DNA of 64,000 nt from Eledone cirrhosa (taxonomy: Eukaryota), in the NCBI GenBank assembly GCA_964016885.1, contig OZ024750.1, positions 1,426,001 to 1,490,000 on the forward strand, in the 5' to 3' direction. The translations under genes were made by a program, and so were the position numbers. Every line of letters begins with the position of its first letter. Position 1 is the first letter of the stretch. The notes below the pieces were generated by a model. The model saw nothing but the letters and a program-made list of their open reading frames with translations. It made no database searches and was not told the origin of the DNA. Positions 1 to 27,150 of the stretch are shown one piece after another.

Positions 1-21
1 CAAACTGTTGTAATACACATA

Positions 22-294
22 TTGAATTACGAAAGCTTGCGGGAAGTTATTCACCTGATCAATGACATGTTAATTTTAAGAGACCAACAATCCGGATTTC
101 GTGATAAGAGATCATGCACTGATATATTTGCATTGCAACGTATTATTGAAAGCACATTCGAATACAAATTAACGGCAGCTATTAACTTTGTCGACTTCCA
201 GAAGCCTTTTTACAAAGTGAAATGTTACATGGAAAATTGTCAGATATTACGTAACAATGGAAACTTTAAACAATATAATGAAGACAAGGAATGA
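22..294 (+). mobile_element. Degenerate non-LTR retrotransposon reverse transcriptase fragment (RTE-like)
   Basis: Translation LRDQQSGFRDKRSCTDIFALQRIIE...INFVDFQKPF matches the LINE RT motifs QxGFRxxRSxxD...FxDFxKAFD; the frame decays afterwards. Confidence 0.8.
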
Positions 295-700: not shown

Positions 701-763
<63 letters not shown>

Positions 764-825
764 AATTAATATCTAGTAACATATATAGAGTCCTCGCTTT
801 GCCTGGATACTTAGCTGAGAATAGT

Positions 826-905
826 CTTCCCTGACGACGAAATGATTCTCCATACTTTCTTCGGAAAGTATATTTATTCCATTTCAGAAACTAATTAGTT
901 GGAAG
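826..905 (+). ncRNA. Type I hammerhead ribozyme, copy 1
   Basis: Stem I cttcc/ggaag; CTGACGA 831-837; extended stem II (gaaatg/catttc plus atactttc-TTCG-gaaagtat, a cUUCGg tetraloop); GAAA 887-890; palindromic stem III CTAATTAG; GUU cleavage triplet ending at 900. Confidence 0.85.
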
Positions 906-1316
906 TGAAATTTTAGTAAGTAAGTTAATTTTATAATTTTCTTATTTTACGTCTCTCATGCATTGAACCACAAAGCTACTAAGACAAAACCTATATATTT
1001 GCTAGCATTGATATGCATCTGTATGTATATATGTTACTAGATATTAATTCTTTATAATTATCTCCAAATTATTTGTCGAGCAATATTGGCCTGAACTGCT
1101 GCTATGGTAGCAGGCAGACCACTGTCTTATTAGCAAACCACTTTCCACTGATTGACCTCGATGTCACGTGATTAATTCTTTTTGAATTTGCCACCGACAC
1201 AGAGGCAGTGATTTTCTCAATGGCTAGGAATTCAGTCCACGCTTTGCTATCCACTGAATATTTTTATATAATTTTCCAGAGTCCTCGCTTTGCCTGGATA
1301 CTTAGCTGAGAATAGT

Positions 1317-1396
1317 CTTCCCTGACGACGAAATGATTCTCTATACTTTCTTCGGAAAGTATATTTATTCCATTTCAGAAACTAATTAGTTGGAAG
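1317..1396 (+). ncRNA. Type I hammerhead ribozyme, copy 2
   Basis: Same architecture offset by 491 bp; CTGACGA 1322-1328; predicted cleavage after 1391. Confidence 0.85.
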
Positions 1397-1442
1397 TGAA
1401 ATTTTACTAAGTAAGTTAATTTTATAATTTTCTTATTTTACG

Positions 1443-1531
<89 letters not shown>

Positions 1532-6139: not shown

Positions 6140-8082
6140 GGGTCGATAAAATAGTCGAATACTATAATCAACTCCAAACTGCTGGCATTGTGTATTTTAT
6201 TGAAACAATTTCTCGGTGATAAACAAACTTCTTTCTCTTTATTAATTTCATCATTCCTTATCCATTTCTATACATTGTACGATGAAAAGAGCAACTATAT
6301 TCATTTCAACATTGGTTATGGATACGAATAGTCAGTGAAAAAAAGAATGTATTTCACGTGAGTTAACTTGTAATTTTCTCCTGGATTCTATCTCAGATGG
6401 CGATGTGTGATAGTTGATGACATGTGTCTCTGTTATTTGACCTCTGTAAAGAAGCAGAGTAATTCCAAGCTTGATTTGATCAACTTGCTACAAAGAGCTT
6501 TGGCGAGTATATTTTACACACTTTCAAAATGTGAACTAAAAAAAATAATTGAATTCAGTTAATGACGTAAATTTAGATAATTCCGTTACGATGCCAAGTA
6601 CAGAATAACGCGAGAAAGAGGATTGTAATGAATTAAAATGTTTTTCTTGTATGGAGAACAGTAGTAAAATCCCACTTAAATTATCGGTGAAGCTACTTTG
6701 ATTTGCTTTCGAACGCCATTCTCTAAAACCCCTCCTACATGAATTATCTAAATGTATGCCATTGACTTATTTCAGTTAGAGCTCTTAACTGGAGTTTTAT
6801 AATAATGGAAAATATACAGAGCAAATTCTTTCTGCTTGTAAAACTACAGGTGTCTTGATTAAAGCCACCTTGAGGAAATTAATTTTTACTGAAACTTACC
6901 CGAAAACAAAGATCATGTTCCCCCACGAACGAAGAAAATTAAAATCATCTTTGGAACTAATTCTTAATTTCTTGAAATTATTTGCCTTTTCCGTTTGAAA
7001 AATGCTAAAATTTGCCGTCAGGGTTTGGTTGTCTCTCTCCATTTAAGATTTAAAGTTCAATTCAAGAATTCTTTGAATATGTCATAGAGTTCATCACCTT
7101 TTTATTCAATCGTGCTTTCGTCTATCTAAGTATTTATCTTTCACCACACACACACAAACCCTCTGACCCCCCCCCCCATATATATATATATATATATATA
7201 TATACTATTACACCCATGTCTCAAACTGTGCAAAAGAAGTTTCAGAAGAACATAAAACACGATACTCTCAGCCCTCATGCGTATATATATATACGCATAC
7301 ACAAACACACACACATGTATATATATATACACACACACACATATAATACACTTAGTTCTTTGAATTTACTCATGTTTCTGCTTCTCCTGAGTAGGTTCCT
7401 GATGATTAATCCTGTTAAAATTATTTTAAATTATATTTTCATTCCTGCCATTTTTAATATCTAATTCAATAATAAAATATAATTAAAATGTGAGCAACTG
7501 CGTAGTTAAAAGAAGCATTTTCAAATATCAATTTTTCTCTTATCAAATACAGATGGCCTTCGAAAAAATATATTGCTCTTTCAAACTTTGTAGTCTATTT
7601 AAACCACTTGAAAAATGTTTCATCACACTGCGACTGACAAATATTACAGTGGAACGAATAATATAGAATTTCTGGATAGTCTCCATGTAATCAAAGAGAT
7701 GTTATACGGCCTGTTTCTCATAAAATATTATTTAAGGGCATAAAATCCTTTCTGAGCCAAGAATATATTTTGAGAATGAGCCAAGGAAGAAGCATTCACT
7801 AAGACGTTCAATGTGTAAGACGTTGTTAGCAGCTAAATCACTCTAAATCATGCTCTACTGTTTTAAAAAACGTAAAGAGGTATTGGATAATATATTATAA
7901 AACTTCATGGTTCCTAACTAGGATGTTTTTGAGGGCTTGTTTTGCAGAATTTCGGTTGACATGTGACAAAATGCAAAACAAAACAAAAAGAGGTAAGTGA
8001 CATAGTCACTACTTTAAAACCAATAGCGTATGGTCTTCAACATGTTTTTAATTAAACATACGGTATATTGCCAAATATACTA

Positions 8083-23806: not shown

Positions 23807-23991
23807 ATACAGACGTACAGTAGTATGTATATATATACATACATGCACACATATATATATGCACGTATCGGTTTACCAAACATTTATTATAATGCTCGGT
23901 TTGTTTGTTTGTAAACAAACAAACAGCCCGAATTACGCCGTACAGTGTTTAGGCAACCACGTCACCTTTTTGTTCAACACTGACACAGGAA

Positions 23992-24032
23992 CAATGTACT
24001 AGTTTCAAGCTTATTAGATATCGTCAGCATCG
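23992..24032 (-). ncRNA. Minimal type I hammerhead (stem II decayed)
   Basis: Minus strand cgatg-CTGACGA-tatctaataagctt-GAAA-ctag-TA-cattg. Confidence 0.65.
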
Positions 24033-24329
24033 TATACCTTCCTGCCAGATGGTTGAACGTCTGAAAGTATATACTTTCCTTATGCATATTAACGGCTGAG
24101 CAGCCTAATTTGCATATCGAGTGAGTTCAATCGGCCGGACACACTGAAAACGATAAATGGAATAGAATGAAACGAAATTTCATTTCTCACTCTTAGTACA
24201 TATGTGTGCATGTGTGTATATATATATACATACTACTGTACGTCTGTATACATATATGTATGTACGTATACATACTTACATTTAAGTAAGTGCCGTACTA
24301 AGAAATGAAATTTAGTTTCATTCTATTTC

Positions 24330-25814: not shown

Positions 25815-26589
25815 GTTCAATCCTGGTAGTATTTATAATATGAAAATGTAGATTTTAAGCGATGGTTACAGTATAACGATCACTCTATTCTGTTATTTAA
25901 TAAAATGTTTTTGGATTTCATAATACAAAATAATTCTACATTACATAATTTACAAAATTCCTGTCCATGGGAATACGGGGGGGGTGGGGGGGGGGGGGGG
26001 GGGGGGGGGGGCAGCCGCTATTATATCCCATTTTAGGTGAAATTGTTGGTTATTTTCACGCAGCTGCCAAGCCTTGTCTGCGAGTGTTGTTACATAACGC
26101 TGGTTTTCATGTTTTATCGAGTAACGATGTCTATAAAGGCGTGATTTGAAGGAGGTGGCTGTAGATCCCACATAGTACCACTTCTGTCTATCCGATTCGA
26201 TAGTACATTTGTATACGATGTTGCGTTCAAGACACTGATTGTTCAACGGACACATTCCTGGTTGGACACAGTTGCAATTATAATTTTGCGTTGTTGTATT
26301 GCCATGGATGGGTTGATGAGGTTGCTTATGTAGGACAGGATGTTGTTTGTTGTTTTGTGATGTTATAGCTAATGTTTTACGTGTATTGTTATGTGTTGGA
26401 AGGCGTTTATACAACCGTTTTGCGTTAAGCTTTTTTATATGTTGTTCAATATTAGGGGCGGTTGAATATGAAAGTCGAATAGTGTTAGGGTTTAAGATTT
26501 TATTATATTTATGTGATGTTGGAAAGTGTTTTTTAACTAATCGAAAGAATTTTGAGGGTAGATTGGTTTTAATAGAGTTGTTATTAAAA
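25815..26589 (-). pseudogene. PLE linker plus GIY-YIG endonuclease coding remnant
   Basis: In-frame SIKTNLPSKFFRLVKKHFPTSHKYNKILNPNTIRLSYS..CNCVQPGMCPLNNQCL..NIVY..YYVGST..FKSRLYRH..LKWDII; a frameshift at the G-run 25977-26011; then PYS..CKLCNVE..LLNNRIE*SLYCNHR (this TGA is CGA in the other arm). Confidence 0.9.
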
Positions 26590-27150
26590 CATTTTATTAA
26601 ATAACAGTATAGAGCGATCGTTATACTGTAACCATCGCTTAAAATCTACATTTTCATATTATAAATACTACCAGGATTGAACGCCTGTCTCTATCCCCGT
26701 TTGATTGTCAAAATAGATATTAACATTCTTTATTAGTCTTAATTCTATCAACTCTTCTATTATTTACCTTTTAATACAAACTGCTATAGATAAAATGAGA
26801 TTTCTGATTTCTTGATTCAATTCCCTAATGCATATACCAGCTGGCTACTAGCATTGATGTTATTTAGTAGCAATCGAAATCTCCCCCTTCCCCAATTGAC
26901 ACTTTATAATTAATACTACTGCACCAAATGACCAGCCCTGTCCACTGTCCAGTTGGTCAAGTAGAGATTAAAATTGGCACTCCCAAAATTCTTATTTAGA
27001 TTTACTCATGGTATTCTCATTAGAAACCCATTATATACTTGTTTAGCAGTAAATTAATTTACCATCTGTCATATACTATCCCCTCTGTTTCTTCCTCTAT
27101 TACTAATATAAATACTTCAATTTTTCTGATTTTATCCAATTTATCCAAAA

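Follow-up and report, generated by a model that had tools for sequence, protein, structure and literature searches.

A non-coding, two-armed hammerhead repeat in Eledone cirrhosa, probably a PLE-type retrozyme insertion

A stretch of 64,000 nucleotides from contig OZ024750.1 of Eledone cirrhosa (assembly GCA_964016885.1, positions 1,426,001 to 1,490,000; hereafter the window) carries near its start two directly repeated hammerhead ribozyme motifs, which raises the question of what kind of element brought them there and how it was copied. The original prediction, made from the letters of the sequence, regarded positions 787 to 1450 as a candidate retrozyme, a non-coding unit mobilised by Penelope-like elements (PLEs). 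The locus is best read, with a probability of roughly 0.85 on the evidence of sequence, as a two-armed insertion of an abundant non-coding tandem repeat, likely a non-autonomous PLE-type (non-LTR) retrozyme that the reverse transcriptase-endonuclease of a PLE wrote into a (TA)n tract. This is a known kind of element, as the retrozyme class and its link to PLEs are already in print (Cervera and de la Pena 2020, PMC7229834; Li, Clavereau and Pollet 2026, bioRxiv 10.64898/2026.07.22.740005); no description of this particular family was found in the titles and abstracts of the literature searched. What the present analysis adds is a predicted internal ‘lock’, a segment complementary to the cleavage junction that appears to be kept across subfamilies and to change together with stem I. 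The insertion occupies positions 757-1452 and its parts are as follows.

703-760, no strand: left (TA)n target tract
757-787, minus strand: inverted arm of 31 bp, ending at the long end of the family (site B, unit position 293)
787-1452, plus strand: direct arm, one unit (787-1277) and then a partial one (unit positions 1-175) that stops at the short end, site A
808-924, plus strand: hammerhead 1, type I, predicted to cut between 900 and 901
901-1391, plus strand: predicted cut-to-cut monomer of 491 nt
960-1056, plus strand: ‘tail’, bounded by the two fixed 3' ends; its family length is 118 nt, of which this copy lacks 21 nt at the start
1139-1154, plus strand: internal lock, whose complement spans the cut site and comprises stem III and the 3' strand of stem I
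1299-1415, plus strand: hammerhead 2, predicted to cut between 1391 and 1392
1449-1531, no strand: right (TA)n target tract

The two 173-bp direct repeats were located precisely as predicted, at 787-959 and 1278-1450 with a spacing of 491 bp and exactly two mismatches (851/1342 and 916/1407). The limits of 787 and 1450 did not hold, however, as 787 is an inversion junction and the insertion extends over 757-1452 when its inverted arm is included. Positions 757-787 are an inverted copy of unit positions 263-293, and the element therefore consists of two head-to-head arms within a (TA)n tract. The length of 173 bp is that of the truncation and no property of the family, and the repeats have no fixed ends. 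The 491-nt monomer stands as the predicted cut-to-cut length of this copy but not as that of the family, whose unit is about 522 nt; the copy is a deletion variant that lacks 31 nt in four deletions of 21, 2, 7 and 1 nt, the largest of which begins at the short end (site A), with a similar loss in a second locus (L007). The unit, with a GC content of about 33% from base counts and thus under 50%, is indeed free of ORFs (the longest ATG ORF round the predicted circle is 29 aa) and adjoins (AT)n, seen as the (TA)n tracts on both sides (703-760 and 1449-1531). It lacks the ORF for RT and GIY-YIG between pseudo-LTRs that marks an autonomous EN+ PLE. A sigma-70 scan identified no promoter, this being a bacterial model that is irrelevant to an animal. 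Further to the left, window positions 1-294 give a weak reverse-transcriptase match (PF00078, E 0.07) that is probably a LINE relic.

Each repeat on its own is predicted to fold as a type I hammerhead with a proximal stem I of 5 bp that is extended distally, a 6-bp stem II with a distal hairpin and a palindromic stem III, which in hammerhead 1 are placed on the plus strand as follows.

826-830 with 901-905, plus strand: stem I, with distal extension
831-837, plus strand: core, with an extra C838
839-844 with 880-885, plus strand: stem II, with hairpin 852-871
887-890, plus strand: GAAA, after an extra A886
890-899, plus strand: palindromic stem III

Cutting is predicted after 900 and 1391, at a GUU triplet that was read from the sequence. 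The core had been called intact, and this is borne out by its letters and by the type I fold: C3-A9, G12-A15, U16 and H17 all agree with the criteria of Perreault 2011 (PMC3088659). It is nevertheless no plain consensus, because an extra C838 precedes and an extra A886 follows the G839-C885 pair, so that stem II is not paired directly beside the core as those criteria have it; the G-C pair is flanked by C in 175 of 176 copies and by A in 195 of 197. Judged from sequence, these bases lower the status of the motif as a ‘canonical’ hammerhead but not as one that probably works like a hammerhead. PLE hammerheads, too, are characterised by an extra base before stem II, a long helix II and a palindromic helix III (Cervera and de la Pena 2014, PMC4209133).

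Across copies the core positions other than N7 are 94-99% conserved, and the G839-C885 pair is kept in all 23 of the copies chosen for their diversity. Ten of the 34 pairs are altered on both sides, a figure matched by none of 500 shuffles and to be compared with 3-7 pairs in slid controls, although kinship of the sequences can inflate it. The proposed check for stem covariation thus gave a positive answer for stem II, whose second pair occurs in all four Watson-Crick forms; of the extended stem II with its UUCG cap, the cap proved specific to a subfamily. The hammerhead by itself has an unremarkable fold energy (z -1.1 and -1.6 for the two copies), and the fold of the monomer is unusually stable (z -4.1 when linear, and -5.4 when circular with 40 shuffles). 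The Rfam check did not recognise the motif: the window has no match at gathering score, and the 14 matches that 700-1550 gives at E<=10 include no hammerhead family.

The proposal that the palindromic stem III favours a dimer agrees with the modelled fold of 787-1450, in which each stem III palindrome is predicted to pair with the other (P 0.86). Under nearest-neighbour folding stem I is weak throughout the longer contexts, with a P of only 0.03 in 787-960, where the lock is not yet included. Slow, dimeric or protein-aided cutting can only be inferred, because the fold models omit tertiary contacts and magnesium. The 3' strand of stem I probably has a second short competitor, 791-803; stem I is unpaired once this segment is included. 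Other hammerheads were seen in passing. The window holds a third, unrelated type I hammerhead at about 23980-24033 on the minus strand, with similar motifs 511 bp apart in locus L101, and further families with a long stem II occur at 7194 and 7653 in L092 and at 2136 in L101, one of them in a 459-bp unit with U-U at the base of stem II.

The repeat is one of a large family. A first look in the 3.0-Gb genome returned 2,105 candidates for the unit, of which 40 were scored, and confirmed that it is multi-copy. A 21-mer over stem III has 2,510 exact genomic matches and a subfamily-tolerant hammerhead pattern (core plus stem III) has 9,942, the reversed control giving 0 in each case. There are 98 distinct cut-to-cut monomers of 500-560 nt, most commonly 522 nt, and the monomers of a sister group (558-561 nt) are 73% identical to this copy. 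The insertion had been taken as recent, and in relative terms it is so, since the divergence between its repeats, 1.2%, is below the median of 2.1% found within 74 loci, but the 560-nt sister subfamily is younger still (99-100%). Pieces of the unit are also present in contigs from runs labelled as three other organisms; four runs with two or three short contigs each (X7, X9-X11) were left out as evidence of range. A variant at three loci (L027, L176 and L177) lacks unit positions 35-114, that is the hammerhead up to the exact cut site, with one junction common to all three, and a similar joint is found in run X1. Copies of the family are also inserted within the (TA)n tails of other PLE-type insertions, a sister subfamily among them (L280 1353-1598; L039/L040).

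The way in which the copies end is the clearest mark of how they were inserted. The sample comprises 94 non-redundant loci, 40 taken by best similarity and 54 in order along contig 1, and is biased towards long arms; 21 overlapping loci were dropped and 16 variant-selected loci were kept out of the locus counts. In it, 141 arms terminate at one of two places, site A (unit 175, class 159-179) or site B (unit 293, class 288-298), which lie about 60 and 179 nt past the predicted cut and 118 nt apart, and 129 of the 141 adjoin (TA)n. The 5' starts are spread over the unit with no fixed position and there are no true LTRs. About ten TA-rich patches exist in the unit, yet only sites A and B are used as ends, and the homologous two ends are used by the 73%-identical sister subfamily and by further subfamilies.

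The two sites are not combined at random. Fifty-six of the 94 loci are head-to-head, and these comprise 45 with A and B, one with B and B, none with A and A and ten with one end elsewhere (binomial probability 7e-13), so that one site per arm is used in 45 of the 46 classifiable insertions. The 38 single-orientation loci end at A in 23 cases, at B in 14 and elsewhere in one. PLE insertions are recognised by microsatellite targets, by partial tandems with an inverted truncated copy, and by a tail that is confined to one end (Craig et al. 2021, PMC8557442); this tail is the sequence from one RT start site to the other (Frangieh et al. 2024, PMC11167929). All of these insertion marks recur here, in partial tandems with an inverted 5'-truncated arm, a one-sided tail and a microsatellite target. 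The original prediction of a retrozyme-like, non-coding, multi-copy element mobilised by PLEs is supported in these respects, by the 9,942 pattern matches, by the A and B ends in (TA)n and by a PLE of like grammar in the same genome that is described below.

The lock is predicted to pair with both sides of the cut, with a P of 0.98 in the linear monomer and 0.89 in the circle. In 91 of the 93 monomers scored no other segment is a better partner for the junction (98 were found, three without an anchor and two off size). In this copy only three of 300 body shuffles pair with the junction as well, the lock beating the other 297, and in nine other representatives the shuffles that equal it number 0-22 in eight and 79 in one; 21 of 23 further lock/junction combinations are beaten by only 0-7 of 200 shuffles, the other two being mis-anchored. 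A shorter lock accompanies a stem I whose 3' strand has one base fewer, and between these two groups the junction pairs better with its own lock than with a swapped one (-16.4 versus -13.9 and -17.7 versus -12.5 kcal/mol), although one derived variant pairs better with a foreign lock. The lock is thus kept across subfamilies and its sequence tracks stem I between them, a covariation that rests on few evolutionary events. With RNAalifold the stem III half of the lock is a consensus helix with one-sided changes only, two of its pairs being broken in the 560-nt subfamily; the lack of two-sided change is due to the invariant partner strand. The lock may have originated as an old inverted fragment. 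From the modelled pairing we infer that it could splint ligation and then block re-cutting.

It is proposed that tandem copies would be transcribed and that the hammerhead would cut slowly, as a dimer or with the help of a protein. By pairing with both of the freshly cut ends the lock would position them for ligation, and once the circle had closed it would protect it from being cut again. A PLE protein would nick both strands of a (TA)n tract, and cDNA would start at site A on one strand and at site B on the other. In its fullest form this describes a retrozyme with its own 16-nt ligation splint that co-evolves with stem I, a dimeric Penelope protein that copies the locked circle from two sites, one per DNA strand, and head-to-head insertions that each represent one circle read twice; such a complete scheme is tentative and, taken as a whole, rather unlikely to be right in every part. 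On the narrower matter of the template, the balance tips towards a circle or an end-clamped monomer, and an uncut linear multimer falls a little short of an even chance.

The strongest rival holds that the same element moves as an uncut linear multimeric transcript, with cutting rare, circles if any as by-products and the lock suppressing cutting during transcription. This account is plausible, though somewhat less likely than not. Counted for it is the lack of any enrichment of 5' junctions at the cut site (about five events versus about nine and seven at two control positions). As 131 of the 141 arms also read through a cut site, 50 of them through two or more, the usual template is not a linear monomer that has been cut and is then copied a single time. 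The junction test used patterns mainly of the subfamily to which this copy belongs; of 18 copies with a base other than T at the cut, 6 loci and 5 independent events held up by eye, against 12 of 29 and 8 of 14 at the controls. In folds of linear RNA the lock also engages the hammerhead downstream of it (P 0.97-0.98). Rare variants present in exactly two copies on opposite arms are in register in four of four cases (chance 1/16), one of them a core mutation common to both penultimate units of L010. A linear multimer, or gene conversion, explains this better than a single monomer circle does. Another sister array, of about a dozen units, is a mosaic and was counted for a linear multimer or later conversion. 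In the only PLE studied in vitro, that of the anole, uncut RNA is the main substrate (PMC11167929), and eight of nine Xenopus retrozyme dimers did not cleave (bioRxiv 10.64898/2026.07.22.740005).

Linear copying followed by 5' truncation can only shorten a copy, yet 72 of the 141 arms are longer than one unit and some cover 4-5 cut sites, in a sample that is biased towards long arms. A sister array of about six units is homogeneous, with six variants in common and one private change, and locus-private alleles occur in all covering units 19 times, in some 13 times and in one 260 times; both observations were counted for a circle. A comparison of terminal with penultimate units, which was unpolarised, gave no signal and no terminal-terminal excess (43/35/41), and was likewise set against the linear multimer.

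Far less probable is that the copies are a satellite or foldback repeat spread by recombination at the DNA level, with the hammerhead a dead relic. Some long arrays are mosaic, as unequal exchange would yield, and no strand-biased A>G marks of RNA editing were found (A>G 21.4 versus T>C 26.4 per 10,000 sites, and 4 versus 7 among alleles common to all units). Such an origin is at odds with fixed 3' ends and ragged 5' ends, with the strict pairing of A with B, with the targeting of (TA)n and with a core that is invariant while the stems covary across subfamilies 27% apart.

PLEs are present in the same genome, as is expected for a retrozyme, and PLE endonuclease matches are abundant (10,595 candidates). 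No coding PLE with this hammerhead or tail was seen among 46 GIY-YIG loci of these 10,595 and the flanks of the family loci, which makes the search for a partner a small one. The unit matched two of the 46 loci, L099 and L078; L099 was rejected as the partner as its copy reads as a separate insertion. When five PLE proteins were compared with the family loci, the three best-placed protein matches near family copies likewise turned out to be separate insertions and not linked ORFs. Two further leads were set aside, a 9-nt upstream match between L029 and a contig end that is unique in the genome, and 39 matches to a short-stem-II pattern that were read as deletion or subfamily variants. A 231-aa open frame at 25953-26645 on the minus strand of the window resembles a PLE RT-endonuclease linker by eye, with no tblastn match to the five PLE proteins of the genome.

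The genome does contain a coding PLE with RT and GIY-YIG that has its own hammerhead and terminates in (TA)n, either about 125 or about 170 nt beyond its cut. This family (L094, L095, L098, L103, L250 and L280) has a compact hammerhead with U-U at the base of stem II and fixed ends about 45 nt apart, and both head-to-head loci seen have one of each end. Its copies are near-identical and therefore probably young. As it has no sequence in common with the unit, it demonstrates the grammar and is not the partner.

The least probable reading takes the copies for pseudo-LTRs, truncated 3' ends left by a long coding PLE. It could draw on the PLE-type traits of the hammerhead (helix II is long, helix III palindromic and stem II preceded by an extra base; PMC4209133) and on the 10,595 endonuclease candidates, but it is largely refuted in this sample. 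Upstream of the hammerhead the copies run into the previous unit and not into an ORF, the nearby PLE protein matches (the three best-placed cases and L099) are separate insertions, and the 98 distinct tandem monomers are 500-560 nt long. In the loci examined the copies did not prove to be mere 3' ends of a coding PLE, the outcome that would have refuted the original prediction.

The cited papers leave open whether the circles of retrozymes and PLEs are real templates of transposition and why their own ribozymes spare them. The family offers a short construct for both questions, with natural subfamily variants of lock and stem I and two mapped start sites, and the rule of one site per arm in 45 of 46 insertions is a figure for which every model of PLE integration must account.

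Among known systems, the plant LTR retrozymes (as described in PMC7229834 and bioRxiv 10.64898/2026.07.22.740005) likewise have two hammerheads that flank a non-coding monomer and a ribozyme that is predicted to be blocked by complementary sequence in the circle. Their type III hammerhead, true LTRs, PBS/PPT, 4-bp TSD and Gypsy partner do not fit this family, whose hammerhead has type I topology and whose repeat length varies. With PLE hammerheads (PMC4209133) the motif shares the extra base between 9 and 10.1, the conserved G10.1-C11.1 pair, a long helix II, a short helix I and a palindromic helix III. It differs from them in two further features, an invariant A inserted between 11.1 and 12 as a second extra base and another hairpin on stem II. 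Neither is mentioned in the text available of that paper, and both may be described by Lunse et al. (RNA Biol 14:1499).

EN+ PLEs (PMC8557442, PMC11167929) have in common with the family the partial tandems, the inverted 5'-truncated copy, the one-ended tail, the (TA)n targets, two internal RT start sites and a hammerhead near the end. The family differs in having no ORF and a tail of 118-122 nt, compared with 30-40 nt in PLEs. Both of its ends coincide with short TA microhomologies; in the anole PLE, by contrast, the start site has no homology to the target (PMC11167929).

The closest likeness is to the metazoan non-LTR retrozymes (PMC7229834; bioRxiv 10.64898/2026.07.22.740005), which the preprint already derives from PLE ends. 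Cleavage and circles have been demonstrated for the published members and are predicted here. The unit of about 522 nt compares with 170-450 nt in PMC7229834 and up to 972 nt in the preprint. The hammerhead is of the PLE type and not canonical, and the copies are mostly dispersed two-armed insertions of one or two units. The predicted blocking of the ribozyme in the circle is reported in PMC7229834 for plant retrozymes, viroids and only some mussel circles, and is said there to be absent from most animal ones. The family agrees with them in its tandem non-coding units with a type I hammerhead each, its low GC content, its thousands of copies, the PLEs in the same genome and the proposed mobilisation by these. 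As far as the letters can tell, and leaving aside a terminal sequence shared with an autonomous PLE, of which the small partner search gave no example, every feature by which metazoan non-LTR retrozymes and PLE-type insertions are recognised in sequence is present in this family.
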